Source: Escherichia phage vB_EcoM-CHD16UKE1. Taken from it: DNA of 64,000 nucleotides. The translations under genes and the position numbers were made by a program. This document shows positions 1-64,000 of this stretch, one piece after another (within the stretch, counting starts at the first letter, position 1; every line of letters begins with the position of its first letter). The stretch lies in the sequence record MZ234030.1. One strand, written 5' to 3'. A model generated the notes under the pieces. That model ran no database searches, had not been told where the DNA came from, and saw nothing but the letters and a program-made list of their open reading frames with translations.

Positions 1-969
1 ATGAAAACTGTAACTATCAATAAGGGTATCTACTTCGGTAAAGAAATCTCTGGAACTTTTGAGCTCTTAGGTGAATGGTTCCCAGATAATGCTCCGGTAG
101 ATGCACAAGGAGATGGTAAAGTTTTTGTTGAAATTGACGGTAAGCGTCGCGGTGTTTGGGTTTACAAATCAGACATTTCATATGATGGTGTAAAAGTTGA
201 AGAAGTTAAAGAATCATATGAAGATATGAAAACCCGCATTAATAAAAGATTTAATGTTATGGGAATGATGACGAATGGTATTATTAACGGAAACATTCGT
301 TCATTAATTATCTCTGGTGCGGCGGGTATTGGTAAAACGTATTCTTTAGATAAAGCTTTGAATAAAGCAAATGATAATGGATACATTGAATATAAAAGCA
401 TTAACGGTAAAATCTCCGGTATCGGTCTTTATGAACAACTTTGGAATAATCGTGAAGAGAATTCTGTCCTTTTGATTGATGATGTGGATGTTTTCTCTGA
501 TATGGACATTCTTAATCTTCTGAAAGCTGCTCTGGACACTGGAGAGACCCGTAAAGTCTGCTGGAGCACTGCATCTTCTTACTTAGAAGAAAAAGGCATT
601 GAGCGTGAGTTTGAATTTAAAGGAACGATTGTTTTTATCACAAACGTTGATATTGACCGCGAATTAGACCGTGGTACTAAACTTGCTCCACATTTACAAG
701 CATTAGTGTCCCGCTCAGTTTATTTAGATTTGGGTGTTCACACTAATGAAGAAATTATGGTCAGGGTTGAAGATGTTATTCTTTCAACCGACATGATGCA
801 AAAGCGCGGTCTTTCTGATGAAGAAACTTATAAAGCATTATCATGGATGAAAGTTAATGTTAATCGTTTACGCAATGTTTCACTGCGTACTGCTCTTTAT
901 CTTGCTGACTTTATTATGACCGACAAAAACGGTTGGGAAGAAATCGCTGAGGTTACTCTTCTGAAATAA
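1..969 (+). CDS. P-loop NTPase of unknown function (322 aa; starts at window edge, may be 5' partial)
   Basis: ORF track; Walker A GAAGIGKT and Walker B-like LLIDDVD in translation. Confidence 0.55.
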   Translation: MKTVTINKGIYFGKEISGTFELLGEWFPDNAPVDAQGDGKVFVEIDGKRRGVWVYKSDISYDGVKVEEVKESYEDMKTRINKRFNVMGMMTNGIINGNIRSLIISGAAGIGKTYSLDKALNKANDNGYIEYKSINGKISGIGLYEQLWNNREENSVLLIDDVDVFSDMDILNLLKAALDTGETRKVCWSTASSYLEEKGIEREFEFKGTIVFITNVDIDRELDRGTKLAPHLQALVSRSVYLDLGVHTNEEIMVRVEDVILSTDMMQKRGLSDEETYKALSWMKVNVNRLRNVSLRTALYLADFIMTDKNGWEEIAEVTLLK

Positions 970-1059
970 ATTCATAAGAGGACTTCTATGACAAAAAGGC
1001 AGTTCAGAAATAGATTATATGGACTGCCATTAAAAAGATGACTAGAATTAAACTGGTGA

Positions 1060-1374: not shown

Positions 1375-1376
1375 TG

Positions 1377-1406
1377 GTTTACAAGACTGTTCCTCTGTGG
1401 TACTAT
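1377..1406 (+). promoter_or_regulatory. T4-type early promoter (GTTTAC -35, 18-nt spacer, TACTAT -10) with conserved leader ending in GGAGG
   Basis: gtttacaagactgttcctctgtggtactat followed by caactatcaactacggagg and ATG at 1435. Confidence 0.55.
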
Positions 1407-1434
1407 ACAACTATCAACTACGGAGGAACACAAA

Positions 1435-1962: not shown

Positions 1963-2017
1963 CCGCTTTATACCAAGGATGGTATAATGGTTCTAAGCCC
2001 TTTTAATTGAGATTATT

Positions 2018-2425: not shown

Positions 2426-2432
2426 GGAAAAT

Positions 2433-3320
2433 ATGTCAGTAGTAATTAATAATGTCAATGCAGTAATTAAATCTTTAGTTAATAAAAAATTAAATGAATG
2501 GACTGTACTTCGTCGTGGAGAGCCAGATAAATTTTTTCATAGATTTAACCCAACTTTGGATTTGAATGTTATTGACAGAGATGTTCATGCTGAAATTTTA
2601 GATAAATTTAAAGTTGATATTGGGTTTGGGTTAGATAAACATTTGCAACGAACAAACGGATCTGGAATGGGTTTATCTAATCGCATCATGAAAGCCCTTA
2701 ATAAAATTGGAGCGTTGTCTCGTATTAATGCGAGTGAAATCCTTCGCAATTATAATAAAGGATATGACCTTTATGGTCGACTAATGCCGAAATTATCATT
2801 TGACCAAATGATTGCGGATTTGTGGGAAAATCAACGACGATTATTAGCATTAGGCGCTCGATTAGCTAAAGGTCTAGATAAACAAATGATTTTTAAGACC
2901 AATAATACAGAAGACCTTAAATGCTTTAAATTTAGTACTCGTGGAGATGATTATTACATCAGAGCTCGCTCTACAGATTATGTTAATATGGGGCATCATC
3001 TCTGTTTAGCTTTTGAAGTTTTAAAAGAAGCCGGAACATTAGAATATGTGTCTGGTGCTAAATGTCCGATTGGTTCAAATTGCATTTTAATTTATCGCCC
3101 AGATGAATCCAGTTCAACTAAATTACCTACAAAACCTGTACCAGTTCGCAGTAATGAAAAACATTCTGAACAAATTGCTTATTTTAATAAGCAGATTGAA
3201 GAGCTAAATATTTCTATTCAGCAATATGATGATGAAATTTTCAGACTATCTGGATTGAGTAGTAAAGCTAAATCTGAGCGTGAAAAATTAATTAAAATCG
3301 TTGATTTACTTAAATCTTAA
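2433..3320 (+). CDS. coiled-coil paralogue family member 1 (295 aa from ATG 2433)
   Basis: ORF track 2412..3320; ATG at 2433 preceded by GAGG; shared W..F..LF.KQ motif and C-terminal coiled coil with next three ORFs. Confidence 0.5.
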   Translation: MSVVINNVNAVIKSLVNKKLNEWTVLRRGEPDKFFHRFNPTLDLNVIDRDVHAEILDKFKVDIGFGLDKHLQRTNGSGMGLSNRIMKALNKIGALSRINASEILRNYNKGYDLYGRLMPKLSFDQMIADLWENQRRLLALGARLAKGLDKQMIFKTNNTEDLKCFKFSTRGDDYYIRARSTDYVNMGHHLCLAFEVLKEAGTLEYVSGAKCPIGSNCILIYRPDESSSTKLPTKPVPVRSNEKHSEQIAYFNKQIEELNISIQQYDDEIFRLSGLSSKAKSEREKLIKIVDLLKS

Positions 3321-3328
3321 GGAACACC

Positions 3329-4351
3329 ATGAAAACTCGTTCTCAAATTGAAGATATGGTTCGTAATGCCAGCTATACTCGTGATGTTATGACATTTTTG
3401 TGTGAAAATAATTTAGACCCTGATAAAGTTAATCGTGTTATTCATCACTTTAAGTATATGAATAGCAGTGAATGGCTGCGACATTTTGATAAAGCTGGAT
3501 ATATTACGCAAATGACTGCTCGCGAACAGCTCACCGATTTCTGTAAAACTATTGATTATAAAAATCCTCTATTTGTTCAAGGCGTTGGTCAGAGTAAGGT
3601 TGATTTATCAACAGGATTTTTTAATCCAAATCATTACCGTCTTGAATGGAGATTTATTGCTCTATTCCGTAAACAATTAAAGCAAATTTTGTCGACGGCT
3701 AGTCGATTAAAAGGTTCTGACATTAACTTAAAGAACCTGAAATTTGATGGTTATACTCTTCAGATGGAAGTAAGACCATTAAAAGAAAATAATAGAACTG
3801 CACGAATTAGCTTTAAACCTAATACAAAAAATTCTCTTTCAATTTGTGAATGCCTTAAATCACAGTTGACAGAAGCATTTAAGTATATGGATGTTGTTGC
3901 CGCTGTTCAGTCTAAGATTTTACCTCATTTTGAGCGAAATTGGGAACATACAACAACGTATGAACTTGATATGATCGTTTCATTTAAATACGATTTTTTG
4001 AGAAAGGATGAAGTCCCGCAAGAGAAAAAGCAGGAAGTGCAAGATAACTTAAATTTATCTAATTGCTCATCAAACGATCCTAAATTTTGGATGTATAGCT
4101 CAGGTAATAAAGATGCATGGAAATTCAATAAAGTGAATTTTCTTCCTATTGAAAATCCGAGTCTTAAACCTGTTGAAAAATGGCACGCGGATGCGATTGA
4201 GAAGTCTATCAAGGCAGTAGATGATGAACTCGTTAAAGCAACTAATGAAGTGCTAGAAGCTGAAAAGATGCTAGAAAAAGCTCAAGAAAAAGTCAAAAAT
4301 CTTACGAAGCAACGTTCTAAACTGAACAATGCACTAAATGCACTAAACTAG
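3329..4351 (+). CDS. coiled-coil paralogue family member 2 (340 aa)
   Basis: ORF track; motif WRFIALFRKQLKQILSTASRLKG; C-terminal coiled coil. Confidence 0.5.
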   Translation: MKTRSQIEDMVRNASYTRDVMTFLCENNLDPDKVNRVIHHFKYMNSSEWLRHFDKAGYITQMTAREQLTDFCKTIDYKNPLFVQGVGQSKVDLSTGFFNPNHYRLEWRFIALFRKQLKQILSTASRLKGSDINLKNLKFDGYTLQMEVRPLKENNRTARISFKPNTKNSLSICECLKSQLTEAFKYMDVVAAVQSKILPHFERNWEHTTTYELDMIVSFKYDFLRKDEVPQEKKQEVQDNLNLSNCSSNDPKFWMYSSGNKDAWKFNKVNFLPIENPSLKPVEKWHADAIEKSIKAVDDELVKATNEVLEAEKMLEKAQEKVKNLTKQRSKLNNALNALN

Positions 4352-4380
4352 TTTACTTTGCCACAAGGATGTGGTATAAT
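4351..4380 (+). promoter_or_regulatory. T4-type early promoter (GTTTAC / TATAAT)
   Basis: gtttactttgccacaaggatgtggtataat; near-identical copy at 51396. Confidence 0.55.
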
Positions 4381-4408
4381 GTTCTTACTTTCTACTGAGG
4401 AGATTAAT

Positions 4409-5410
4409 ATGACTCGTAACGAATATATCAAATCATTCAATAGCGTTATTGATGATAAAGTTAAACCTGTGTTTAGTCAGAATAGTGTTATTTCCATTAT
4501 CAATCAATGGCTTAATAATATTGATGCAAGTATTGTTTCTTCAAGCAAATTTATTCATGAAGTTCATAAAATTTCTAGTCGCGAATATAAAGATGATATT
4601 AAGGAAACTTTTAAAGGTTCTCGTCTTCTTTCATATTTAGTTAATCAAGATATTCTTGGTAAATTTGGGAAAGAAATTAAACGAACTAAAGATGTAGTAG
4701 GATACAGTTGGTTCGGTGATGTTAATTCTTATCATCTTAATAATAAAGAAGACCCTGAGAATATTTTTACTCGTCGTTGGATTAGTAATTTTAGACTTTT
4801 CAAGAAGCAAATTCTAAAATCAACTTCTAAATTATGCTATGGTGATTATCGTCAAATCCATCCTTGGGCTTCTGATATGATTATCATAAAAGAATATGAG
4901 CTTGATAAAAATAAAGCAGCTATTTTTGTGAATTATGAATTTTTTACACCAGAAGCTAATCAAAAGAACATTAATAAATTTTTCTCAATTGCTAGCGATA
5001 TAACTCGTCAGTTAGAGACCGCATTACTTTGTATGGAAACAGTAGAAAATATTCATACTTATCCTTTTAAGAATATATGCGGTTGGGAAGGATATAAAAT
5101 TGTAGTTAGTCTCCGTGAAGTAAAGTGTGCGTACTCACCGACTGATAAAGAAATTTACCAACAAAAATGTGATGAAATTGTGAATACTCCTAAAGAAGAA
5201 ACTACCCTTGAGGAACTAATGGAATGTCTTGACGATTCGCCTGAACCAGTAGAAATTCGTCCAGAAGTTATTGCACTAGAAAAAGCTTATAAAGAAGTTC
5301 TAGAAATTTCTAATAAAGCGCAGAAAGAATATGAGCAGGCTAAAAAGATTTGGGAAGAATCCGTTAATCGTCTTGATCGTCTTGAACAAGCTTTACAGTT
5401 AATTAAGTAA
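4409..5410 (+). CDS. coiled-coil paralogue family member 3 (333 aa from ATG 4409)
   Basis: ORF track 4358..5410; ATG 4409 with GAGGAG SD; motif RRWISNFRLFKKQILKSTSKLCYG. Confidence 0.5.
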   Translation: MTRNEYIKSFNSVIDDKVKPVFSQNSVISIINQWLNNIDASIVSSSKFIHEVHKISSREYKDDIKETFKGSRLLSYLVNQDILGKFGKEIKRTKDVVGYSWFGDVNSYHLNNKEDPENIFTRRWISNFRLFKKQILKSTSKLCYGDYRQIHPWASDMIIIKEYELDKNKAAIFVNYEFFTPEANQKNINKFFSIASDITRQLETALLCMETVENIHTYPFKNICGWEGYKIVVSLREVKCAYSPTDKEIYQQKCDEIVNTPKEETTLEELMECLDDSPEPVEIRPEVIALEKAYKEVLEISNKAQKEYEQAKKIWEESVNRLDRLEQALQLIK

Positions 5411-5462
5411 TTTAAAGCCAAGGATGGCTCGGAGTATAAACCATTAACCAAGTGAGAAGAAT

Positions 5463-6392
5463 ATGAAAACTCGTAAACATTATATTGATTATTTTGACAG
5501 TCTTATTACTAAACATCGTGATTATCAGATAGGACACAGAGCAGTAATCAATAATATTCTTCGTGATTTCCTTCAGTATGTTGGCCAGGAAAATCATATC
5601 TGTAAAGATACTCAGAACGCTTATTCTCATTCGTTAGGCAATTTACTTGAATGGTTTAAACGTTCTCGTATGTTATCTTCTACTGTAGCTCGCGATAACA
5701 TTAAAAACTTTATGAAGCCGAGATTCATTAAAACTGCGACATCTATAACCGATTTGGTTGAATTTACTATTGTTAACGATGTTAAAAAGACCCATTTGGC
5801 TGATTGGTTATCTACCATTCCCGAAACTAAATTTGCTGATAAATTCGCTTGTCAATTCAATGACCAAGTGAATATGCTTTTTAAGCATGCTCGTAAACTA
5901 TTTACCGCGGGCGATGACCGTACAAATACAGTTCATGTTAAGGATTGGGTTATTGCTGATGAAGTAACACACAAGCCAGGTGGTTCATCAGTATTAATTA
6001 ATATCCAGGTTCCTTATTATTACTCACGTAATCTCGGCACCATGACAGCTAGAGAAATTAATAAGCACAACAAAATTATTCGTTCGTTGTCTTATAAACT
6101 CTGCACGATGGTGGAGATGATGGACGTAGTGGAAATGTATGACGAAACCGAAGATAATGATTCAATGCTGTACAGTTCACGCATTCTAATTAAACTGAAG
6201 AACCCTAATACATATAAGCAAGTTGTAAAAGAACCTAAAGCAGAAAAGGCTGATAATCTGAGTGAAGAACGCGAATATCTCAATGCTCGTTTGATTGAAG
6301 TTGAAGCCCAAATTGCAGAACACACCAAATTGTTAAAAGCTCTTAATGCAAAAGCAAATGGTTTACGTAATGCTATTGAGGTATTGAAATGA
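5463..6392 (+). CDS. coiled-coil paralogue family member 4 (309 aa)
   Basis: ORF track; C-terminal coiled coil; weaker shared motif. Confidence 0.45.
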   Translation: MKTRKHYIDYFDSLITKHRDYQIGHRAVINNILRDFLQYVGQENHICKDTQNAYSHSLGNLLEWFKRSRMLSSTVARDNIKNFMKPRFIKTATSITDLVEFTIVNDVKKTHLADWLSTIPETKFADKFACQFNDQVNMLFKHARKLFTAGDDRTNTVHVKDWVIADEVTHKPGGSSVLINIQVPYYYSRNLGTMTAREINKHNKIIRSLSYKLCTMVEMMDVVEMYDETEDNDSMLYSSRILIKLKNPNTYKQVVKEPKAEKADNLSEEREYLNARLIEVEAQIAEHTKLLKALNAKANGLRNAIEVLK

Positions 6393-6778
6393 AAAAGCGT
6401 CTATTAGAAGACATTGCAGCTTCAAGTAATTCCAGTTTAATTAAAATTATTATGGCTGGTGAGGAAGATGATATGGAAATGCGTGGAAAGATTCACGGCT
6501 GCGACGATTTAGATTTTAAACCTCCAGCATGGGATGCTATTATGGCTATGGTTGAACGACGTGAAAGGGCTTCTAAAAACGTTCCTAATTGCCCTGAATG
6601 TGGAACTGAACAAGTTCAATTGATTAACTGGCGTAAACCAGAGCTTGAATATAAATGCCGTCAATGTAAACATAAATTCAGTAAGCATGCTCCGGAAATG
6701 GTTAAATTGCCTGACTCTACTGAGTTCTTTAAAGAACTTGTGAGTGTTCAACCAATGCCTAATAATATTTTGGATTAA
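6389..6778 (+). CDS. zinc-ribbon protein (CPEC..CRQC), 129 aa
   Basis: ORF track; two CxxC pairs. Confidence 0.45.
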
Positions 6779-6780
6779 AA

Positions 6781-7023
6781 ATGACCAAGCGTAAAGAATA
6801 TATGGAGGCTGCTGAAAAGGCAGTCCGTGAATTAGCAATAGCTTATTATAATGAACATGGTAAATTTCCTGATAGATACAGCGTGCTTAAATCTGCTTTA
6901 ACTCGTTCATATAAAAATATGCTATCAGAAGTAAGTGATATTATATACAAACATAAAGAACAAACGGGCCAAAGTCTTGATTACGACGAGACTTTTAAAC
7001 AAGTACTAGGAATTAAGGAATAA
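6781..7023 (+). CDS. hypothetical protein (80 aa)
   Basis: ORF track. Confidence 0.4.
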
Positions 7024-9010: not shown

Positions 9011-10824
9011 CAATTGAAAAAGAAATTGAAGGATTGATTCATAAAACTAATAAAGACCTTTTAAACGAGAATGCTAATAAAGATTCTCGTGTTTTTCCAA
9101 CTCAACGGGACCTTATGGCTGGTATTGTGTCTAAACACATTGCCAAAAATATGGTCCCGTCTTTTATTATGAAAGCGCATGAAAGCGGAATTATCCATTT
9201 CCACGATATTGATTATTCCCCTGCTCTTCCATTTACTAATTGTTGTTTAGTAGATTTAAAAGGAATGCTTGAGAACGGATTTAAGCTTGGTAATGCACAG
9301 ATTGAAACTCCTAAATCAATCGGTGTTGCTACTGCAATTATGGCACAAATTACTGCACAGGTTGCTTCTCACCAATATGGCGGAACTACATTTGCTAATG
9401 TCGATAAAGTACTTTCTCCTTATGTTAAACGCACCTATGCAAAACATATTGAGGATGCAGAAAAATGGCAAATCGCTGATGCGTTAAATTATGCTCAATC
9501 TAAAACAGAAAAAGATGTATACGATGCATTCCAAGCTTATGAATATGAAGTAAATACTCTCTTTAGTTCAAACGGACAGACTCCTTTTGTAACAATTACA
9601 TTTGGTACGGGAACTGACTGGACTGAACGAATGATTCAGAAAGCAATTCTGAAAAATCGTATTAAAGGTCTCGGTCGTGATGGGATAACTCCTATTTTCC
9701 CTAAGCTTGTTATGTTCGTTGAAGAAGGTGTTAATCTTTATAAAGACGATCCGAACTATGATATTAAGCAGCTTGCTCTAGAGTGTGCAAGCAAAAGGAT
9801 GTATCCTGATATTATTTCAGCTAAGAACAATAAAGCTATCACTGGTTCATCTGTTCCTGTTTCTCCAATGGGTTGCCGCAGTTTCTTGGGCGTATGGAAA
9901 GATTCGACTGGTAATGAAATTCTTGATGGACGTAATAATCTTGGTGTTGTAACACTGAATCTTCCTCGCATCGCGTTAGATTCTTATATTGGAACACAGT
10001 TCAATGAACAGAAATTTGTTGAATTGTTCAATGAACGAATGGATTTATGTTTTGAAGCTTTGATGTGTAGAATTAGTTCCTTAAAAGGAGTTAAAGCTAC
10101 TGTTGCTCCTATTCTTTACCAAGAAGGTGCATTTGGGGTTCGTCTTAAACCTGATGACGATATAATTGAGTTATTTAAAAACGGTAGAAGTTCAGTGTCT
10201 TTAGGATACATTGGTATTCACGAATTGAATATTCTTGTCGGTCGTGATATTGGACGAGAAATTTTAACTAAAATGAATGCTCATCTTAAACAGTGGACTG
10301 AAAGAACCGGATTTGCTTTTAGTTTATATTCGACTCCTGCTGAAAACCTTTGTTATCGCTTCTGTAAACTCGATACAGAAAAATATGGAAGCGTAAAAGA
10401 TGTTACCGATAAAGGCTGGTACACTAACAGTTTCCATGTCTCAGTAGAAGAAAATATTACTCCGTTTGAAAAGATTTCTCGTGAAGCGCCATATCATTTC
10501 ATTGCGACAGGTGGTCACATTTCTTATGTTGAACTTCCTGATATGAAAAATAACTTGAAAGGTCTTGAGGCCGTATGGGATTATGCTGCACAACATTTAG
10601 ATTATTTTGGTGTTAATATGCCAGTGGATAAATGTTTTACATGCGGAAGTACCCATGAAATGACTCCTACTGAAAACGGATTTGTTTGTTCTATTTGTGG
10701 AGAAACTGATCCTAAAAAGATGAATACAATAAGAAGAACATGTGGTTATTTGGGAAATCCGAACGAACGCGGATTTAATCTCGGCAAAAATAAAGAAATC
10801 ATGCATAGGGTTAAGCATCAATGA
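9007..10824 (+). CDS. nrdD: anaerobic ribonucleoside-triphosphate reductase NrdD (605 aa), uninterrupted
   Basis: ORF track; C-terminal glycyl-radical motif RRTCGYLG and Cys cluster. Confidence 0.9.
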   Translation: MTIEKEIEGLIHKTNKDLLNENANKDSRVFPTQRDLMAGIVSKHIAKNMVPSFIMKAHESGIIHFHDIDYSPALPFTNCCLVDLKGMLENGFKLGNAQIETPKSIGVATAIMAQITAQVASHQYGGTTFANVDKVLSPYVKRTYAKHIEDAEKWQIADALNYAQSKTEKDVYDAFQAYEYEVNTLFSSNGQTPFVTITFGTGTDWTERMIQKAILKNRIKGLGRDGITPIFPKLVMFVEEGVNLYKDDPNYDIKQLALECASKRMYPDIISAKNNKAITGSSVPVSPMGCRSFLGVWKDSTGNEILDGRNNLGVVTLNLPRIALDSYIGTQFNEQKFVELFNERMDLCFEALMCRISSLKGVKATVAPILYQEGAFGVRLKPDDDIIELFKNGRSSVSLGYIGIHELNILVGRDIGREILTKMNAHLKQWTERTGFAFSLYSTPAENLCYRFCKLDTEKYGSVKDVTDKGWYTNSFHVSVEENITPFEKISREAPYHFIATGGHISYVELPDMKNNLKGLEAVWDYAAQHLDYFGVNMPVDKCFTCGSTHEMTPTENGFVCSICGETDPKKMNTIRRTCGYLGNPNERGFNLGKNKEIMHRVKHQ

Positions 10825-11291
10825 ATTATGATAGATTTTATCCTTGCGATTTTGTGAATGGCCCTGGTTGCAGGGTCGTTCTTTTCGTTACAGGTTGTTT
10901 GCATAAATGCGAAGGGTGTTATAATAAATCAACATGGAATGCTAGAAATGGTATTCCATTCACTGGTGAAACACTAGAACAATTAATTGAATGTTTGAAT
11001 AATGATTATATAGAAGGATTAACTATAACTGGAGGAGACCCTCTCTATCCTGATAATCGAGATGTTATTCATTGCATTGTTCAAACAGTAAAAAATCTTT
11101 ATCCAAATAAAAGCATTTGGTTGTGGACAGGATATAAGTTTGAAGATATTAAACAACTAGAAATGCTTAAATATGTTGATGTTATTATTGATGGGAAGTA
11201 TGAGAAAAATCTTCCGACCAAAAAGCTGTGGAGAGGATCAGATAATCAGCGGCTTTGGTCAAATACCGATGGGGTGTGGACACATGATTAA
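10821..11291 (+). CDS. nrdG: anaerobic RNR activating protein NrdG (156 aa)
   Basis: ORF track; N-terminal Cys cluster; overlaps nrdD stop. Confidence 0.85.
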   Translation: MNYDRFYPCDFVNGPGCRVVLFVTGCLHKCEGCYNKSTWNARNGIPFTGETLEQLIECLNNDYIEGLTITGGDPLYPDNRDVIHCIVQTVKNLYPNKSIWLWTGYKFEDIKQLEMLKYVDVIIDGKYEKNLPTKKLWRGSDNQRLWSNTDGVWTHD

Positions 11292-11406
11292 ATTGAATTA
11301 CATTATGGATACTATAAATGATATGATTTTTCATTTTGGTCCAGAATTTTATTCGCAGTATAGTTTAGTGCTTATCAATGCTTGGTTAATCAATTAAGGG
11401 TAAAAT

Positions 11407-11622
11407 ATGTATAAATTTCGTAAAGGTTTAGCTGATTTTCTTACAACTGTAACATTCTTTCTGTTTATGGCAGTTGGAGCTATTTTCCTTATTCCTTTTA
11501 TTGCTATATTTTTCGTGATTAGTTTGATTTCTCCAGAAAAGGGTTTATCTTCTAGCGAGTTCAATGAGCGTCTGGATAAAATTACTAACAAGCTGAATTC
11601 TGTTCTTGATAAAAAGGCTTAA
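11407..11622 (+). CDS. small membrane protein (71 aa)
   Basis: ORF track; long hydrophobic segment. Confidence 0.4.
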   Translation: MYKFRKGLADFLTTVTFFLFMAVGAIFLIPFIAIFFVISLISPEKGLSSSEFNERLDKITNKLNSVLDKKA

Positions 11623-11624
11623 TT

Positions 11625-11936
11625 ATGATTAGTTTTGAGCGGTATGTGGTAGAGAGTTGGAAGGGTTTTGATATGTTCGGTAATGACTATTATTTTTACG
11701 AATGTAGTCTAAATCCTAGTTTTTGGGCTGGACGTGAACGAGATCTCGAAGAAATTAATGCTCGTGCCGAATTGTTAGGTGAACTGCCTACGGTTTATTT
11801 TACCTTTGATGCATCTGGATTTGTTATCCAGGTTTATTTTCCTGAAGAAAACTCTGGTGAGGATTCTGTTAACCCGCCATACTGGGCTTATCAAGGAATT
11901 ATTTCTCGTGGAACAAAACTCGAACTTAAAGAATAA
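11625..11936 (+). CDS. hypothetical protein (103 aa)
   Basis: ORF track. Confidence 0.45.
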   Translation: MISFERYVVESWKGFDMFGNDYYFYECSLNPSFWAGRERDLEEINARAELLGELPTVYFTFDASGFVIQVYFPEENSGEDSVNPPYWAYQGIISRGTKLELKE

Positions 11937-17015: not shown

Positions 17016-18031
17016 AAATTTTAAATTTAGGTGATTGGCATTTAGGCGTTAAAGCCGATGATGAGTGGGTTCAATCCATTCAGTTGGATGGAATTAAACA
17101 AGCAATAGAATATTCTAAGAAAAATGGAATTACTACATGGATTCAATACGGCGATATTTTTGATGTGCGAAAAGCAATCACGCATAAAACTATGGAGTTC
17201 GCTCGTGAAATAGTTCAAATGCTTGATGATGCTGGTATTACCCTACATACTGTTGTAGGAAACCATGATATGCACTTTAAAAATACTTTAACTCCAAATG
17301 CCTCTACTGAGCTTTTGGCTAAATATCATAATGTTAAAGTATATGATAAGCCTACTACAGTAGATTTTGACGGATGTTTGATTGATTTAATTCCTTGGAT
17401 GTGTGAAGAAAATACTGGTGAAATTCTTGAACACATCAAAACTTCATCTGCTTCTTTTTGTGTTGGTCACTGGGAGCTGAATGGATTTTATTTTTATAAA
17501 GGAATGAAATCTCACGGTCTTGAACCTGATTTCCTTAAGACTTATAAAGAAGTGTGGTCTGGTCACTTCCATACTATTTCTGAGGCTGCTAACGTCAGAT
17601 ATATTGGGACACCATGGACACTAACAGCAGGTGACGAGAATGACCCTCGTGGGTTCTGGATGTTTGATACAGAAACAGAACGAATGGAATTTATTCCAAA
17701 TAATACTACCTGGCATCGTAGAATTCATTATCCATTTAAAGGAAAAATTGACTATAAAGATTTTACAAATCTATCAGTACGTGTTATAGTAACTGAAGTA
17801 GACAAAAATCTGACGAAGTTCGAATCTGAACTAGAGAAAGTTGTGCATTCATTACGAGTTGTGTCAAAGATTGATAACTCTGTCGAGTCAGATGACAGTG
17901 AAGAAGTTGAAGTTCAATCGCTTCAGACATTGATGGAAGAATACATTAATGCAATTCCAGACATCACCGATTCTGACCGTGAAGCACTTATTCAATATGC
18001 AAATCAGCTATATGTAGAGGCAACACAATGA
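17012..18031 (+). CDS. 47: recombination nuclease subunit gp47 (Mre11-like), 339 aa
   Basis: ORF track; phosphoesterase motifs (GDWH, GNHD); length matches T4 gp47. Confidence 0.85.
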   Translation: MKILNLGDWHLGVKADDEWVQSIQLDGIKQAIEYSKKNGITTWIQYGDIFDVRKAITHKTMEFAREIVQMLDDAGITLHTVVGNHDMHFKNTLTPNASTELLAKYHNVKVYDKPTTVDFDGCLIDLIPWMCEENTGEILEHIKTSSASFCVGHWELNGFYFYKGMKSHGLEPDFLKTYKEVWSGHFHTISEAANVRYIGTPWTLTAGDENDPRGFWMFDTETERMEFIPNNTTWHRRIHYPFKGKIDYKDFTNLSVRVIVTEVDKNLTKFESELEKVVHSLRVVSKIDNSVESDDSEEVEVQSLQTLMEEYINAIPDITDSDREALIQYANQLYVEATQ

Positions 18032-18291
18032 CTTTTGATGAATTTAAAAATGTTATGATGAGTCAGCATTTTGAATGCGAAGTAAAAGATGATATTGGGC
18101 ATAAAGAAATTATTGAATATTGGTTTGAACCGTTAGAGGTTGAAGATAATTGTATTAAAAAGGTTACAGTCTGCACTGACTGGGCTGTATCTTTTAACTT
18201 CAACATTTTAGATAATGACACACCTAAATCATTACGAGATATGGCCGTATCTTGTATTAAGGATGCATACTGTGAAGTTTTCGACATTTGA
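18028..18291 (+). CDS. hypothetical protein (87 aa)
   Basis: ORF track. Confidence 0.4.
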   Translation: MTFDEFKNVMMSQHFECEVKDDIGHKEIIEYWFEPLEVEDNCIKKVTVCTDWAVSFNFNILDNDTPKSLRDMAVSCIKDAYCEVFDI

Positions 18292-28450: not shown

Positions 28451-29298
28451 TTCAATTCGTAATTCCAAGTTATCAACGTGTCGGGGCAGTTTCTGCCCTT
28501 GATATGTTTCCGACTGATTATGAACCGCATATTATAGTGCGTGAACACGAAGAAAAAGCTTATTATGATGCCTATGGGTCTAGAGCTAAAATTGTAACTA
28601 TTCCTGATGATGTTAATGGAATTGCCGGTACTCGTAAAGCAATTACTGATATGTATGCAGGTCAACGAATCTGGATGATTGACGATGATACTACTATCCG
28701 TATGAGTTCAATACGAAAGAGAGACGATAAACGGCGCGTAGATAAAATTAATCAATTAACTCGTGAACAGTTCTATGAATTGATTCAATATGTTGAAGAT
28801 GCCATGGATTGCGGGTATTATCACGGTCATGCTCGTCTACCAATTTTTAAAATTACTTCATCTTGGGGTAATTATCGTGAAAATTCATATGGATTCACGA
28901 ATACATGGTATGATCTCGGAAAACTTACGACAGAACAAATTGGGTATGGAAAAATTGATTTATGCGAAGATATGTATGCATTTCTCAATTTAATTAATCA
29001 AGGTTATCCGCATTTGGCCTTGTTCAAATATCTAGTTGTATCTGGAAAAGCACAAGCTCCTGGCGGGTGTAGTTCAATTCGTAGTAATTCTAAACATAAT
29101 AGAGCGCTTGAGCAAATCAATAGAGAGTTTCCAGAGCAAGCTCGTTGGAAAACTTCTAATATTGAAAAACGAAAATCGTTGGGTGAAGAAGACGAGCCAT
29201 TAAAGGTTCTTCGCATGTGCGTTTCGCGTAAAGAAAAATCAGAAGCATTTCATAAGTTTAATGCTATTCACAAAGTTGAAGTTACGGAAATATCATGA
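28447..29298 (+). CDS. GT-A fold glycosyltransferase (283 aa from ATG 28447)
   Basis: ORF track 28441..29298; N-terminal FVIPSYQR and DxD-like WMIDDDTT; ATGA overlap with gene 42 stop. Confidence 0.55.
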   Translation: MIQFVIPSYQRVGAVSALDMFPTDYEPHIIVREHEEKAYYDAYGSRAKIVTIPDDVNGIAGTRKAITDMYAGQRIWMIDDDTTIRMSSIRKRDDKRRVDKINQLTREQFYELIQYVEDAMDCGYYHGHARLPIFKITSSWGNYRENSYGFTNTWYDLGKLTTEQIGYGKIDLCEDMYAFLNLINQGYPHLALFKYLVVSGKAQAPGGCSSIRSNSKHNRALEQINREFPEQARWKTSNIEKRKSLGEEDEPLKVLRMCVSRKEKSEAFHKFNAIHKVEVTEIS

Positions 29299-30371
29299 AA
29301 ATAGCTATTCTAAATTTAAGTAATACTGTGAGTGATTTTAAAATAGTATCATCAGCCGAAACTATTTTAATAGGCAGGTCTTTAACTGAATTAGGGCATT
29401 CCGTTGATATAATTTCAATGCGAAATACTGAATACACTATATCATTTGATGTAGTAACTGATATAAATTCATACGATAGACTAATAGTAATTAATGGCGC
29501 TATCAATTTCTTCGGTGGAAAGAAAAATCCAATCGTTTTAAATTCATATAAATTGATGGCTGAATATAGAAGTAAAATTTATTATATTTTTACTGATGGC
29601 CGTCTTGGATTTATGCAAGTTCTTCCGGTAGTTCGCAGAAAGAAATTTTCAAGTGAATACAAAGATGAAGACTTATTTGTGTCATCTGACTTTAAAGTAA
29701 TATCTCAGGGCAGAAATCTAGAAATTGCTAAAAAGGCTCATAAGAAAACAACCGAAAGATACGGTAAAGAATTTGAGTATGATTACTTTCCTGTAGATAG
29801 ATATTTTATTCATTCACAGAAACTTAAACCTGCGAATCAAACTATTAAAAAATATGACGTTGTGTACTGCGGCGCGTTTAGAGGTGGGCAACGAGAGTCT
29901 AAAATAGTTGAATTTCTTTTTGATACCAATTTAAATATTAAAATGTTTGGAACTATTAAAGAGAAACAGTTTAAAAATCCTAAATTTCCGTGGAATGTAG
30001 CTCCATCATTCAGTCAAAAAATAGCATCAAATTTGGTTATTGACACGAATAGCCAAGCGATAGCAACTATAGTCATTGGTGATAAAGATTACAATGATAA
30101 TTTTATCACAATTAGAGTCTGGGAGGCCATGGCATCAGATGCTGTGATGCTTATCGATGAAGAGTTTGATAGCGAGCATCTTATTATTGACGACCCTAGA
30201 TTCTACGTTAAGAATAAAAATGATTTTGAAACTTTAGTAAATGAGTTAAAAACCAATGAGTGCTTGAGGCGGGAATTGATTACAATACAACATCAAACCC
30301 TATTTAAGTATCAAAGTTTAAAATCAGAATGGCAAGAAGAGCTTCTTCGCGTTCTCGATATCACCGCTTAA
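29295..30371 (+). CDS. b-gt: beta-glucosyltransferase-family protein (358 aa; diverged from recalled T4 beta-gt)
   Basis: ORF track; blocks INFFGGK, FRGGQRESK, NFITIRVWEAMASDAVMLIDEEFD resemble T4 beta-gt. Confidence 0.65.
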   Translation: MKIAILNLSNTVSDFKIVSSAETILIGRSLTELGHSVDIISMRNTEYTISFDVVTDINSYDRLIVINGAINFFGGKKNPIVLNSYKLMAEYRSKIYYIFTDGRLGFMQVLPVVRRKKFSSEYKDEDLFVSSDFKVISQGRNLEIAKKAHKKTTERYGKEFEYDYFPVDRYFIHSQKLKPANQTIKKYDVVYCGAFRGGQRESKIVEFLFDTNLNIKMFGTIKEKQFKNPKFPWNVAPSFSQKIASNLVIDTNSQAIATIVIGDKDYNDNFITIRVWEAMASDAVMLIDEEFDSEHLIIDDPRFYVKNKNDFETLVNELKTNECLRRELITIQHQTLFKYQSLKSEWQEELLRVLDITA

Positions 30372-30383
30372 TTTGAGGTTAAT

Positions 30384-30497
30384 ATGTTAGGACCTTTATT
30401 ATTCATTACTGGCTTAGGAATATTTACCGCAGTTAGTCTTGCTGGATTGTATCTGTATGACCTTTATGAAAGTAAGAAATCAAAAAGTAAATGCTAA
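30384..30497 (+). CDS. small membrane protein (37 aa)
   Basis: ATG 30384 to TAA 30495-30497. Confidence 0.3.
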   Translation: MLGPLLFITGLGIFTAVSLAGLYLYDLYESKKSKSKC

Positions 30498-30613
30498 ATG
30501 ATAAGGTGATATAATTATCTCATTATTAAATATGATGTAGTTAAACTCTGGGTATAACAATACCCTTTATTATAAACATGAGTAAAATATAATGCTGCCT
30601 ATGGAAAAATATA

Positions 30614-31789
30614 ATGTCTGATTTAAAATCCCGTTTGATTAAAGCTTCCACTTCTAAAATGACTGCAGAGCTTACTAAAAGCAAGTTCTTTAATGAAAAG
30701 GATGTGGTTCGTACTAAAATTCCAATGCTGAATATTGCAATTAGCGGTGCGTTGGACGGTGGTATGCAGTCTGGTTTAACTATTTTCGCAGGGCCTTCTA
30801 AACATTTTAAATCTAATATGTCACTGACAATGGTAGCAGCTTATTTGAATAAGTATCCTGATGCTATCTGTTTGTTCTATGACTCAGAGTTTGGTATCAC
30901 TCCGGCTTATCTTAAGTCTATGGGAGTTGACCCAGAACGAGTAATTCATACGCCAATCCAGTCAGTTGAACAGCTGAAAATTGATATGGTGAATCAGCTT
31001 GAAACTATTGAGCGTGGTGAAAAAGTTATTGTATTCATCGATTCAATTGGTAATATGGCTTCTAAGAAAGAAACTGAAGATGCCTTGAATGAAAAATCTG
31101 TGGCAGATATGACTCGTGCTAAATCACTGAAGTCATTATTCCGTATTGTTACTCCTTATTTTAGCATTAAAAATATTCCATGTGTTGCAGTTAACCATAC
31201 AATTGAAACCATTGAAATGTTTAGTAAAACCGTGATGACAGGTGGTACAGGCGTAATGTATTCGGCTGATACCGTATTCATTATCGGTAAGCGTCAGATT
31301 AAAGATGGTTCTGATCTTCAGGGGTATCAATTTGTTCTAAATGTAGAAAAATCTCGTACCGTTAAAGAAAAAAGTAAATTCTTTATTGATGTTAAATTTG
31401 ACGGTGGTATCGATCCTTATTCTGGATTGTTAGATATGGCTCTAGAATTAGGATTTGTGGTAAAACCTAAAAATGGTTGGTATGCTCGTGAATTTCTTGA
31501 TGAAGAAACCGGCGAGATGATTCGCGAAGAAAAATCTTGGCGTGCAAAAGATACTAACTGCACTACATTCTGGGGTCCTTTATTTAAGCATCAACCATTC
31601 CGAGATGCTATTAAACGTGCTTATCAGTTAGGTGCTATTGATAGTAATGAAATTGTTGAAGCTGAAGTTGATGAATTGATTAACTCAAAGGTTGAAAAAT
31701 TTAAATCTCCAGAAAGTAAAAGTAAATCAGCTGCTGATTTAGAAACTGACCTCGAACAGTTAAGTGATATGGAAGAATTTAATGAATAA
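30614..31789 (+). CDS. uvsX: recombinase UvsX (RecA-like), 391 aa
   Basis: ORF track; Walker A GPSKHFKS; length matches T4 UvsX. Confidence 0.9.
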   Translation: MSDLKSRLIKASTSKMTAELTKSKFFNEKDVVRTKIPMLNIAISGALDGGMQSGLTIFAGPSKHFKSNMSLTMVAAYLNKYPDAICLFYDSEFGITPAYLKSMGVDPERVIHTPIQSVEQLKIDMVNQLETIERGEKVIVFIDSIGNMASKKETEDALNEKSVADMTRAKSLKSLFRIVTPYFSIKNIPCVAVNHTIETIEMFSKTVMTGGTGVMYSADTVFIIGKRQIKDGSDLQGYQFVLNVEKSRTVKEKSKFFIDVKFDGGIDPYSGLLDMALELGFVVKPKNGWYAREFLDEETGEMIREEKSWRAKDTNCTTFWGPLFKHQPFRDAIKRAYQLGAIDSNEIVEAEVDELINSKVEKFKSPESKSKSAADLETDLEQLSDMEEFNE

Positions 31790-45057: not shown

Positions 45058-45289
45058 AGATCAGTTTTATCTTCTTCAAGATAAAGTAAGCGAAATTTAT
45101 GAAATTGCTTATAGCAAAAATCGTGAAACTGTAAAAATAGAATCTAGTAAGTTGATGCTTCAATTAGAAGAAATTGAACGAGATTTAATTGCGTTAGAAT
45201 TCTTTTGTGGTGAAGTTAAAACTGTTACAATCAATGATTACGTTTTAGGCGAAATTAGCTATCTTTATAAGGCGATTATTAATGATTGA
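45029..45289 (+). CDS. hypothetical protein (about 81-86 aa; non-ATG start TTG 45029 or GTG 45044)
   Basis: ORF track; paralogous to next ORF. Confidence 0.35.
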   Translation: MRKLFVEITKDQFYLLQDKVSEIYEIAYSKNRETVKIESSKLMLQLEEIERDLIALEFFCGEVKTVTINDYVLGEISYLYKAIIND

Positions 45290-56889: not shown

Positions 56890-57105
56890 ATGAAAAGTTT
56901 TAAAGATGTAAAAGTTGGTGAAATTTTTTGTTTAGATAACGGTGATCAGTTAATTCGTATTTCACCTCTTAAGAGCACTAGCGAAAAAATGACAGTTAAT
57001 GCTACTTTAGCAAATAACAGTAATGAACGTTTCTGTATTGAAAATGATACTGAAACTTATACCGTAGAAGAGTTTTGGGAATTGAGCGTCGACTGCGACG
57101 ATTAA
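56890..57105 (+). CDS. hypothetical protein (71 aa)
   Basis: ORF track. Confidence 0.4.
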   Translation: MKSFKDVKVGEIFCLDNGDQLIRISPLKSTSEKMTVNATLANNSNERFCIENDTETYTVEEFWELSVDCDD

Positions 57106-59336: not shown

Positions 59337-59482
59337 GTCCATTCATTGGTATCACAAGCGCTGCATTAGTATCTGGTGGCATTTTACTGGCGGGTTTAGG
59401 TGTTGTTCCTGCCGTAGCAGGAGGTCTTCTTGCGTTCGGAATTCAACGTGTTATCATGACAGTTATCACAGTCATGCAGTAA
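59333..59482 (+). CDS. small membrane protein (49 aa; ac-like position)
   Basis: ATG 59333 overlapping gene 52 stop to TAA 59480-59482. Confidence 0.35.
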   Translation: MSPFIGITSAALVSGGILLAGLGVVPAVAGGLLAFGIQRVIMTVITVMQ

Positions 59483-59487
59483 TTTTA

Positions 59488-59513
59488 GGGAGAGCCGAGG
59501 CTCTCCCTTTTTT
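59488..59513 (+). terminator. intrinsic terminator (GGGAGAGC-CGAG-GCUCUCCC + T6)
   Basis: gggagagccgaggctctcccttttttatt. Confidence 0.65.
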
Positions 59514-59538
59514 ATTTCAAAAATTTTTTCACAAAATG

Positions 59539-59568
59539 GTTTACAACCAAAGCATACTGTGGTACTAT
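59539..59568 (+). promoter_or_regulatory. T4-type early promoter with conserved leader
   Basis: gtttacaaccaaagcatactgtggtactat. Confidence 0.55.
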
Positions 59569-59617
59569 ACAACTATCAAATAAATGAACTGAAACAAACA
59601 ACCCGGAGATACAAAAA

Positions 59618-59950: not shown

Positions 59951-60586
59951 ATGTCTAAAGTAACTTACATCATCAAAGCTTCTAACGATGTTCTGAATGA
60001 AAAAACTGCTGCGATTTTAATTACCATTGCTAAGAAAGATTTCATTACAGCTGCAGAAGTTCGTGAGGTGCATCCAGATTTAGGTAACGCAGTAGTTAAT
60101 AGTAATATTGGGGTATTGATTAAAAAAGGCCTGGTGGAGAAATCTGGTGATGGATTAATCATTACAGGTGAAGCTCAAGATATTATTTCAAACGCAGCAA
60201 CTTTATACGCGCAGGAAAATGCTCCGGAACTACTGAAAAAACGAGCAACTCGTAAAGCTCGTGAGATTACTTCTGATATGGAAGAAGATAAAGACCTCAT
60301 GTTAAAACTTTTAGATGAAAATGGATTTGTTCTTAAAAAGGTTGAAACTTATCGTAGTAATTATCTTGCCATTTTAGAAAAACGCACTCACGGAATTCGT
60401 AATTTTGAAATTAACAATAATGGAAATATGCGAATTTTTGGATACAAAATGATGGAACATCATATTCAGAAATTTACTGATATCGGAATGTCATGTAAAA
60501 TCGCTAAAAACGGTAATGTGTATCTTGACATTAAACGCTCGGCAGAAAACATTGAAGCTGTAATCACTGTAGCATCTGAACTGTGA
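59951..60586 (+). CDS. motA: middle-transcription activator MotA (211 aa)
   Basis: ORF track; length and sequence match recalled T4 MotA. Confidence 0.85.
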   Translation: MSKVTYIIKASNDVLNEKTAAILITIAKKDFITAAEVREVHPDLGNAVVNSNIGVLIKKGLVEKSGDGLIITGEAQDIISNAATLYAQENAPELLKKRATRKAREITSDMEEDKDLMLKLLDENGFVLKKVETYRSNYLAILEKRTHGIRNFEINNNGNMRIFGYKMMEHHIQKFTDIGMSCKIAKNGNVYLDIKRSAENIEAVITVASEL

Positions 60587-60596
60587 GGAATAAATA

Positions 60597-60926
60597 ATGA
60601 ACAAGTTAGAAATTGTCAATGAACTTCGTCGTTGTGTAGAACCTACTCAAGAGGGTTGGGACATCTGGTACCATGGAGCTTATCTTGGAACTATCGTAAA
60701 GATTAAGACTGGTAAATACATGATTATTCGTGAAAGTAAAGATGCTCCAGTAGGTATTCGCAATAATTTTATGGCAGCGATAAGTTCATTTACGGATGCA
60801 GCTTACGAAATTTACCTTGCTGATTATAAAGAATTTCAGGAATCTCAACCAGTTATTCGTTCAATTGGTGTTAACAAAGCTCAACAGAAAACTTTATGGC
60901 AACGTATTAAAGGATGGTTTAAATGA
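60597..60926 (+). CDS. hypothetical protein (109 aa)
   Basis: ORF track. Confidence 0.4.
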
Positions 60927-61384
60927 ACCCATTTATTAATCGTTTAAAAATGCTGAATGTTCCTTTATGTCGTGAAACTCCAGAAAGTCTTGTTGAAAAA
61001 TTTAAAGCGCATGGTTATAAATGCACAGAAGAAGATATTCTAAAAGAAGTTCCTGAAATCTGTTGGCAGACCGCATACTGGGATGAAAACCAAAAGTATC
61101 AACGACGAATTGTTTGTGCCGCCAACCGTTTTAAATTAAAAGATGGACGAACTCTTGTTATTCCAGGTGCTCGTCATTATTCTAAAGATATGGCAGAAGT
61201 TTTAGATGTAGTTAAACCCCAATTAGTTACTCAGCAAGTTTGTGATGATGACCAAGGGTTTATTGATCAGTATAGCAATTACTGGACACGTGAAGAAGCA
61301 ATGATTATTGCAACTTACGCTGGACAAGTGCGTATTGAACGTGGTGGTAGTGAAAAAGAACTTTACTCTGAGGACCTTTACTAA
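60923..61384 (+). CDS. hypothetical protein (153 aa)
   Basis: ORF track. Confidence 0.4.
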
Positions 61385-61680
61385 TGAATATTAAAAAGTT
61401 TCAAATTGATGGAATTAAGAATCAAATCCAGGCGTTGGAATATGCCAATAAAATGATGTCAACTAATTGGGGAATTTATGCCAATGAACCGGCATTTCAG
61501 TTCTGTGATATGGAATTCACTAAAAAGCTCGTAGGAAAAGATTATGTATGTCCATTTAGTTATCCAGTAAATGGAATGCTAAAACTTGCTTTACGCGATC
61601 TTTATATTGCGATGAACGAAGAGATGATAAAAGAGCTAAAACGCCAACTGAAGGTGATTCAAATTGGCCAGGGAAATTAA
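61384..61680 (+). CDS. hypothetical protein (98 aa)
   Basis: ORF track. Confidence 0.4.
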   Translation: MNIKKFQIDGIKNQIQALEYANKMMSTNWGIYANEPAFQFCDMEFTKKLVGKDYVCPFSYPVNGMLKLALRDLYIAMNEEMIKELKRQLKVIQIGQGN

Positions 61681-61882
61681 TTCAAAATCCGATTATTTTA
61701 ATTCTCTCAACGATAAAGATAAAAATCTAATACGGCATTTTATTGTTGAGATGGGATATACCGATACACGCGATTTAAGAGAACATATATTTGAATGTGG
61801 TGTAGCTAAAAAGTTTTCATTCACATGCAAATGTTTAAGAGAGGTAATTCAGCACTATGAACAATTTAGTCGCAAAGCATAA
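61664..61882 (+). CDS. hypothetical protein (72 aa)
   Basis: ORF track. Confidence 0.35.
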   Translation: MAREINSKSDYFNSLNDKDKNLIRHFIVEMGYTDTRDLREHIFECGVAKKFSFTCKCLREVIQHYEQFSRKA

Positions 61883-61965
61883 TTTTAATAAAGCTTCTGT
61901 TCATAAGGATAAGAAGAAAGCGTTTAAAGAATCTAATCGCAAACAGAAACATAAGGGGAAGGTCT

Positions 61966-62244
61966 ATGATTATTGATTCTCAGTCTGTGGTTCAATACAC
62001 AATCAAAATTGATATTCTAGAAAAGCTATATAAGTTTCTACCAAATTTATACCACTCAATTGTTAATGAATTAGTTGAAGAACTACATCTTGAGAATAAT
62101 GATTTCTTGATTGGAACTTATAAAGACCTCTCAAAAGCAGGATATTTTTACGTAATTCCAGCTCCAGGAAAAAGTATTGATGATGTATTAGAAACTATAA
62201 TGATTTATGTCCATGATTACGAAATTGAAGATTATTTCGAATGA
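61966..62244 (+). CDS. arn: Arn-like protein (92 aa; anti-restriction against McrBC in T4)
   Basis: ORF track; 92 aa; position between motA and asiA. Confidence 0.5.
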   Translation: MIIDSQSVVQYTIKIDILEKLYKFLPNLYHSIVNELVEELHLENNDFLIGTYKDLSKAGYFYVIPAPGKSIDDVLETIMIYVHDYEIEDYFE

Positions 62245-62344
62245 GTCATAATCTTGAAATGGTAATCGAGCATAATGTAGCTCAGGAACGCGAGTCGTTC
62301 AAGGAATTCGTAGAAAAAATTTTTGAAGAAAATAACACAGACCA

Positions 62345-62374
62345 GTTTACAAATCAAGCGTCTGATGATATTAT
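62345..62374 (+). promoter_or_regulatory. T4-type early promoter upstream of asiA
   Basis: gtttacaaatcaagcgtctgatgatattat. Confidence 0.55.
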
Positions 62375-62405
62375 AATAAAGTCAACTAATTGAGTGGTAT
62401 AGTTA

Positions 62406-62678
62406 ATGAATAAAAACATTGATACAGTTCGTGAAATTATTACTGTTGCATCTATTTTGATTAAATTTTCCAGAGAAGATATTGTTGAGAATCGTGCTAA
62501 TTTTATTGCATTTCTTAATGAGATTGGAGTAACGCATGAAGGTAGAAAGTTAAATCAGAATTCATTTCGTAAAATTGTTTCTGAATTAACTCAAGAAGAT
62601 AAGAAAACCCTCATCGACGAATTCAACGAGGGTTTTGAGGGTGTATATCGATATCTAGAAATGTATACGAACAAATAA
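62406..62678 (+). CDS. asiA: anti-sigma70 factor AsiA (90 aa)
   Basis: ORF track; sequence and length match recalled T4 AsiA. Confidence 0.85.
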   Translation: MNKNIDTVREIITVASILIKFSREDIVENRANFIAFLNEIGVTHEGRKLNQNSFRKIVSELTQEDKKTLIDEFNEGFEGVYRYLEMYTNK

Positions 62679-63335
62679 TTATTTAGCCCTTCCTAATATT
62701 CTGGCCGCCTGAGCACATATTGATTCAAGGCGGTCATTACTTATATGATCATTTCTATACCAGTACATGGTTATCGTTCCAGCATAGATATTATCCAAAT
62801 TAAAATATGGACAACTGTACATGTAGTTTATTTCGGGAGTAGGCTTTTTAGTTGGTAAAAAAGCAAATTTTGAGTCGGAATAATAATGACGTCCATTTAA
62901 ATGAACTGTATATTCATCCATAGTTTTATCAACAGGATATCCTCCAAGTGATTTTTCACTTATTGTTGAAGGTAATTTTCCTTCATATGCTATAATATCA
63001 ACAAAATAGTTTAAGTTTTTAGGGCGGAAAGAATACACCGCACTAAAGTCTGCCTCAGATGATATATGAACTATCTGGAGTTGTTCCAGGGCGACAGATT
63101 CAAAGCGTGCATTTCTTTCCTTTTCAATAATTTCACTGTATGTTTCATACTTTGATTGCTTATAGTACTCAAAGAAACTATCTCCCCTATACCAAACAAT
63201 CGCCATCATAAATAAAAGAATTACGACAGCTACCCGGGAAGCAAGAACTTTCCCGGTAGCGTTATCTTTGAACAAGCGATCTAGAACACCAAATAGAATA
63301 TCAGAGGGCGAAAATGATATTCTAGGTGCTGCCAT
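62679..63335 (-). CDS. t: holin T (218 aa)
   Basis: ORF track; single TM near N-terminus, large periplasmic domain; length matches T4 T. Confidence 0.85.
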   Translation of the reverse strand: MAAPRISFSPSDILFGVLDRLFKDNATGKVLASRVAVVILLFMMAIVWYRGDSFFEYYKQSKYETYSEIIEKERNARFESVALEQLQIVHISSEADFSAVYSFRPKNLNYFVDIIAYEGKLPSTISEKSLGGYPVDKTMDEYTVHLNGRHYYSDSKFAFLPTKKPTPEINYMYSCPYFNLDNIYAGTITMYWYRNDHISNDRLESICAQAARILGRAK

Positions 63336-63353
63336 AGACCCTCCTTTTAGGGG

Positions 63354-63361
63354 TATTTATT
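63354..63361 (-). promoter_or_regulatory. late-promoter-like box (AATAAATA) between gene 38 stop and t start
   Basis: reverse complement of tatttatt. Confidence 0.35.
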
Positions 63362-63366
63362 CAAAA

Positions 63367-63954
63367 TTATACTCTTGGACCATATATTACTCCAACATTT
63401 TGCCAAGTTGGAGCAGATCCTATGACAGCATAACCTGCTGCTCCTCCTGCACCAACCTTTAGAACTTTACCACCATCAGACCAGGCATTTTGTCCATTTC
63501 CTCCGGCATCGCCGCCCTGGCCAGAGTGAGCATTTCCGTATTGGTAACCACCTCCTGGGGCGACGTATGAAGCTGCGCCACCTGAGTAACCACCGCCACC
63601 ACCTGGGCCAAATGGTCTTCCGCCGCCACCACCAATATCTTGCCAGTCTGCCCCTGAGTGAACACGGTAAGCAATGCCGCCACCACCGCCTCCGCCACCA
63701 CAGATTACTCCACCATTGTTAATTCTTAATCGTCCACCAATGTCGTTTTGAATACAATGCCCGCCTTGTTGTCCATTACCATCTCCACCGGAATGAGTCC
63801 ATCCACCTTGTCCACCTCTACCCCACATATGAGCGCCAATAATATTTAACTGAACATATTCATTTGGTGTATCTCCGTACATGAAGAATAAAGGAACATC
63901 TTTAGAGAACATATTCATTTGGTGTATCTCCGTACATGAAGAATAAAGGAACAT
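63367..63954 (-). CDS. 38: gp38 receptor-recognising adhesin, glycine-rich C-terminal domain ORF (195 aa), T2-type
   Basis: ORF track; polyglycine motifs; [20 protein letters not shown] and [19 protein letters not shown] blocks as recalled from T2 gp38. Confidence 0.7.
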
Positions 63955-63961
63955 CTTTAGA
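63852..63961 (-). repeat. perfect 55-bp direct tandem duplication (2 copies) at the 5' end of the gene 38 ORF
   Basis: identical units at 63852-63906 and 63907-63961; flanks do not extend the match. Confidence 0.9.
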
Positions 63962-64000
63962 AATCACCTGTAATATTAAACACTATAGGTGCATTACCTG
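63957..64000 (-). CDS. 3' end of upstream ORF (...[13 protein letters not shown]), gp38 N-terminal domain fragment or gp37 C-terminus; truncated by window
   Basis: only open minus-strand frame at window edge; stop TAA at plus 63957-63959 inside distal repeat copy. Confidence 0.4.

Follow-up and report, generated by a model that had tools for sequence, protein, structure and literature searches.

The analysed window comprises the first 64 kb (64,000 nt) of sequence record MZ234030, the 168,543-bp genome of Escherichia phage vB_EcoM-CHD16UKE1 (CHD16UKE1). This phage is a Tequatrovirus, and its gene 38, which is of the T2/S16 type, lies upstream of the holin gene t on the same strand. The features at the locus are the following:

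63957 to 64000, running off the window, minus strand: 3' end of a truncated N-terminal gp38 ORF; its database entry is QZI80779.1 (83 aa, 'receptor recognizing protein')
Between plus 63961 and 63962, minus strand: position of 11 missing nt (sense TAGTATCATAT, LVSY codons in all intact relatives), located by alignment to relatives
63907 to 63961, minus strand: distal copy of a 55-nt unit, matching the proximal one at every base and redundant if the duplication is an untrimmed assembly overlap
63852 to 63906, minus strand: proximal copy of this unit, read in the conserved frame of gp38; its 3' side is collinear with the relatives
63367 to 63954, minus strand: ORF of 195 aa with the C-terminal part of gp38, in which Pfam GP38 positions 40-218 follow a 16-codon out-of-frame leader derived from the distal copy
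62679 to 63335, minus strand: holin gene t, directly downstream of gene 38 in the standard T-even order 37-38-t

Tandem Repeats Finder reported a single array, 63852-63961, with a period of 55, 2.0 copies, 100% matches and a score of 220. An exact-match scan of the 64-kb window for perfect tandem duplications (periods 20-400 nt) revealed no other one, and 20 shuffles of the window contained none. Both programs confirmed that 63852-63906 and 63907-63961 are identical head-to-tail copies, as the first-pass annotation of this DNA had stated. The repeat cannot be extended by even one base on either side. Its unit reads TCTAAAG...ATATGTTC in the sense direction and encodes a conserved stretch of gp38, residues 83-101; the choice of which copy counts as the 'extra' one is arbitrary.

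Translation of the region bore out the reading frames that had been proposed. The minus-strand frame entering from the window edge stops at a TAA (plus 63957-63959), and an ATG 2 nt past this stop (63954-63952) opens the 195-aa ORF, the first 16 codons of which read the distal copy out of frame before the adhesin frame (SKDVPLFF...) is entered in the proximal copy. With one copy, the same ATG would open an ORF of 17 codons, again as claimed. The C-terminal fragment was deposited from an internal ATG at 63918 (QZI80778.1, 183 aa, 'hypothetical protein CHD16UKE1_131'), and the MNMF leader of this product is possible only with the duplication. As deposited, the sequence therefore holds an 83-aa and a 183- or 195-aa ORF in place of a single uninterrupted gp38 ORF of about 260-266 aa. 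Exact-sequence look-ups retrieved the 83-aa (...NITGDF) and 183-aa products from public data solely as QZI80779.1 and QZI80778.1 of CHD16UKE1, and an exact-protein look-up in Logan/ENA found neither of them in any independent assembly.

The close relatives CHD2BS1, JK08, PM107 and G3G7 encode an uninterrupted gp38 of 265 aa. In the intact protein of a relative, PF21721 (Gp38_N) covers residues 1-42 (1.5e-19) and PF05268 (GP38) residues 47-265 (1.2e-66); the 195-aa ORF of the window matches PF05268 over profile positions 40-218 with E=1.1e-46. Chains 9v85_A and 6f45_D were the PDB matches of gp38. In this phage type gp38 is the receptor-binding adhesin, its beta-helix combines segments from both the N- and the C-terminal part, and its glycine-rich motifs and hypervariable segments extend from about residue 120 onward (PMC12032242). 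The locus shares the gene order 37-38-t with phages carrying gp38 of the T2/T6/S16 type (PF21721 plus PF05268; PDB 6F45, 9V85), and, minus one copy and plus the 11 nt, the part of the gene lying in the window is identical to the 265-aa gp38 of CHD2BS1, G3G7 and PM107. In contrast to that type, the ORF in the window is interrupted and annotated as two CDSs (83 and 183 aa).

The 11-nt deletion borders the distal copy on its outer side. In intact relatives the sequence is GGTGATT-TAGTATCATAT-TCTAAAG, with one 55-nt copy together with TAGTATCATAT, whereas the window has two copies and lacks TAGTATCATAT, a net change of +44 nt. The deletion directly abuts the distal copy with a positional ambiguity of 2 nt (TT). 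It is this deletion, not the duplication, that creates the TAA closing the N-terminal gp38 frame. Apart from these two changes, window positions 61987-64000 are base-for-base the same as in the intact relatives. Strings diagnostic of the alternative forms are GGTGATTTAGTATCATATTCTAAAG for the repaired form (one copy plus the 11 nt), GAATATGTTC followed directly by TCTAAAGATG for the deposited junction, and GGTGATTTCTAAAG for the deletion.

The first-pass annotation had regarded the duplication as a frame-restoring or domain-splitting rearrangement that provides the receptor-binding domain with a start, and had named an assembly artefact as the fallback. Translation of all frames contradicted a restoration of the frame, as with a net gain of 44 nt neither one nor two copies yields an intact gp38. 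The proposed splitting of domains did not hold either, because the break at residue 83 falls inside Pfam GP38 (47-265) and the beta-helix region and not at a domain boundary. A newly acquired start is likewise at odds with the close relatives, all of which have the intact 265-aa ORF with one copy and the 11 nt. All 507 matching phage records carry one 55-nt copy, so that no relative combining the two-copy arrangement with an intact in-frame gp38 was found among them. Neither novel junction occurred in 50,697 phage records (megablast) or in IMG/VR (exact-pattern scans), and the rearrangement thus lacks a counterpart in any other public sequence. A biological precedent reportedly exists in the tandem His-box duplications of T4 gene 37, likewise a host-range gene of the distal tail fibre (Tetart et al. 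1996, cited in PMC8614997), which are said to expand the host range and to lie in frame in the receptor-binding region. The duplication in the window resembles these in being tandem and in such a gene, but its unit of 55 nt and net gain of 44 nt are not multiples of 3 and destroy the frame; moreover, residues 83-101 are conserved, precede the glycine-rich motifs and hypervariable segments, and do not belong to a receptor-contacting segment.

SPAdes writes a circular genome as a linear contig with identical first and last k bases, and its default values of k are 21, 33, 55, 77, 99 and 127. The genome of CHD16UKE1 was obtained from MiSeq reads with SPAdes 3.13/3.14, Geneious and Prokka; the k used is not given in that study (PMC8614997). 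[quoted passage not shown] The window and all sibling Tequatrovirus records have a common start base, with a first CDS at 1..969 and position 1 of the window aligning to position 1 of PM107. This shared start base across the series indicates that the contigs were rotated after assembly. Five sibling records of the same study contain duplications or terminal repeats of exactly 55 or 127 nt:

CHD2BS1 (MZ234027), 18015-18125: 55 nt twice, spanning the gp47 stop and the start of the next gene, with clean flanks; absent from G3F6 and from the window
G3G7 (MZ234040), gene 37, record about 66463-66716: 127 nt twice; distal tail-fibre gp37 split into CDSs G3G7_132 and G3G7_133, spanning 3115 versus 2988 nt
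101117UKE2 (MZ234019), 6391-6500: 55 nt twice; absent from all relatives
101118B1 (MZ234020), 30940-31049: 55 nt twice; essential gp16 gene split into two CDSs
101114BS4 (MZ234016), 1-127 and 45125-45251: prefix of 127 nt identical to the suffix, in an unrotated record with the first CDS at base 49

Together with CHD16UKE1, six records of the study thus carry exact-k duplications of 55 or 127 nt at unrelated places. The Vectrevirus genomes 101117UKE2 and 101118B1 (44,526 bp each) belong to podophages unrelated to the window phage and are 100% identical except at the duplication site; G3A1 (MZ234032) is without the duplication of 101117UKE2 and measures 44,471 bp, i.e. 44,526 - 55. An apparent mismatch at the join of 101117UKE2 proved to be an alignment-edge effect and no true difference. 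Exact-k repeats were absent from 22664UKE3-2, PM107 (1-70 kb), PM105 (1-41 kb) and G3F6 (1-41 kb). For PM105, a 127-nt duplication had been suspected from an offset of +129 nt relative to PM107; none is present in its first 41 kb, and the offset is due to mosaic allele differences. In 101114BS4, where the k=127 overlap is still attached, the stated genome size is 127 nt too long. Separately, the first ten CDSs in positions 1-7000 of the sibling records are all named 'thioredoxin' and several of their neighbours 'molybdenum ABC transporter'; these labels look like propagated annotation errors and not like true functions.

The flanks are clean at three of the four internal duplications in the siblings. 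The only comparable anomaly is a single base in G3G7: within 3 kb of gene 37, its sole private difference is T at 66462, where G3F6, PM107 and CHD2BS1 have C, and this base sits directly before the duplicated 127-mer. Of the three joins in Tequatrovirus records, two lie within the host-range block of genes 37-38, in which a polymorphism within the phage stock is plausible.

These observations agree with what an untrimmed SPAdes overlap, such as the 127-bp case in the literature (PMC5923482), should look like: the copies are perfect and head to tail, their length equals a default k (55), the genome is a SPAdes assembly re-opened at a chosen start, near-identical relatives are without the duplication, and genomes from the same pipeline have exact-k duplications elsewhere. 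The fallback of the first-pass annotation, an assembly artefact, is thereby supported. As six records from one pipeline share exact 55- or 127-nt duplications, several of which break essential genes of viable phages, little room is left for a biological reading. The duplication is almost certainly a database error to be corrected and not a host-range rearrangement.

Two points count against a plain overlap. Such an overlap would be a pure insertion with collinear, intact flanks, yet at this join 11 nt are absent beside the distal copy. Furthermore, for 2x300 reads the largest default k of SPAdes is 127, and a value of 55 points to either altered settings or reads trimmed short; on the other hand, three siblings likewise show 55. 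Concerning the missing 11 nt, the probability that a deletion touches the contig join by chance in a 168-kb genome is about 1e-5. Contact at roughly 1 in 10^5 by chance ties the deletion causally to the join, and its most likely origin is an error made at the join or a minority variant. More specific origins were considered and rejected: a bubble between wild type and deletion at k=55 predicts the anchor k-mer T+U[1..54], which is one base off the observed unit, and an in-frame 12-nt deletion combined with duplication of a (k+1)-mer does not reproduce the observed junction.

Taken together, an untrimmed SPAdes overlap of k=55 accompanied by a join-associated 11-nt error or minority variant is very probably the correct explanation, and the true gene 38 would then encode an intact 265-aa adhesin. 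According to this explanation, the linear SPAdes contig of the circularly permuted genome carried the same k bases at both ends, and the depositors rotated the record so that a chosen gene begins at position 1. Joining the old contig ends untrimmed left the k-mer, with k = 55, twice in tandem, and, as the join fell in gene 38, the annotation pipeline called two fragments (83 and 183 aa) where a single adhesin of 265 aa belongs. The 11-nt deletion would be part of the same contig-end join. Most likely, the assembler anchored its circular path at a vertex of the graph that is also reached by a variant or erroneous branch, in which case the bases beside the terminal k-mer, presumably the least reliable of the contig, would stem from a minority or erroneous path. 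The original contig of CHD16UKE1 is expected to start or end with TCTAAAG...ATATGTTC or its reverse complement, and the actual gene 38 should be intact and single-copy as in G3G7, CHD2BS1 and the bred progeny.

CHD16UKE1 was isolated from wastewater and forms plaques on 42% of 79 E. coli strains; in kinetic host range it ranked in the top two of the ancestral phages (PMC8614997). Plaquing on this proportion of strains and a top kinetic host range fit poorly with a broken adhesin. All bred progeny on the CHD16UKE1/G3G7 backbone have an intact 265-aa gp38. In the progeny phage PM107, CHD16UKE1-specific alleles are found at more than 130 consecutive markers (60025-61986), the nearest of them 1.9 kb away from the site, and thus descent from CHD16UKE1 is shown on this one flank; after 61986 both ancestors are identical through the stretch holding gene 38, and the gp38 of PM107 is intact. 

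The same comparisons revealed further differences between these genomes. Window positions 60025-61986, which hold motA-adjacent 'anti-restriction nuclease' genes, differ between CHD16UKE1 and G3G7 at more than 130 positions and by a 15-nt indel at 60737. PM107 is of the CHD16UKE1 type there and of the G3G7 type at 56897-56985 and 59347-59613, which represents a breeding mosaic on a sub-kb scale. At about 10760-10821 the window is without a homing-endonuclease insertion of approximately 1.03 kb that PM107 carries between nrdD and nrdG (11025-11855). Conversely, about 1.25 kb of the window (29270-30573) with a gene for a hypothetical protein is missing from PM107 and present in CHD2BS1 and G3F6.

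A different possibility is that only the duplication is artefactual and that CHD16UKE1 is truly fixed for the 11-nt deletion. Gene 38 would then be frameshifted after residue 83, and only the 83-aa N-terminal fragment would be made, plus at best a poorly initiated C-terminal fragment starting at GTG; adsorption would have to rely on another route or on occasional frameshifting at TTC-TAA-A. The deposited sequence does contain the deletion, which a simple overlap leaves unexplained, its flanking 2-nt microhomology (TT) is that of an ordinary mutation type, and with a single copy a frame-B ORF could reinitiate at a GTG that precedes the TAA by 8 nt. We nevertheless consider a fixed deletion improbable. 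The exact contact of the deletion with the contig join would be the coincidence of about 1e-5 calculated above, and G3G7 demonstrates that an aberrant base can occur beside a join. In addition, the deletion junction is found in none of more than 500 matching records, progeny with this backbone keep the intact gene, and loss of gp38, the receptor-binding adhesin (PMC12032242), is difficult to reconcile with the plaquing host range of 42%.

It is also conceivable that both changes are real and arose in one complex rearrangement, replacing the monomeric gp38 adhesin by two translationally coupled polypeptides, an N-terminal fragment and the 195-aa protein. The arrangement AGGTGAT-TTCTAAAG-ATG would be suited to such coupling: stop and start are 2 nt apart, and the deletion places the Shine-Dalgarno-like AGGTGAT 8 nt from the ATG, compared with 19 nt in the relatives. 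The 195-aa ORF moreover retains Pfam GP38 positions 40-218. If true, a broad-host-range phage would possess a split, non-covalently assembled receptor-binding tip. We regard this as highly improbable, since the duplication has the length of a SPAdes k and the study contains five further records with exact-k duplications at unrelated sites, including twin genomes that differ only in the site. The arrangement is also confined to one record, and the break inside a folded domain would deprive the receptor-binding part of its covalent link to the fibre (PMC12032242).

With the untrimmed overlap as the preferred explanation, overlaps should be trimmed from MZ234030 and from at least five siblings (MZ234027, MZ234040, MZ234019, MZ234020 and MZ234016). 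Three of these overlaps break essential virion genes in the annotation, namely those for gp38, gp37 and gp16. Searching records for perfect repeats, tandem or terminal, with a length of 55, 77, 99 or 127 nt would be a simple way to detect such overlaps and should precede any scan for tail-fibre rearrangements. The phages are proposed for therapy, and sequences of gp38 and gp37 serve for the prediction of receptors and host range. This prediction, like scans for tail-fibre rearrangements, will be misled by adhesin entries in fragments and by false 'frameshifts'. The best reading of the locus is that gene 38 of CHD16UKE1 is ordinary and intact and that the feature is not biological.
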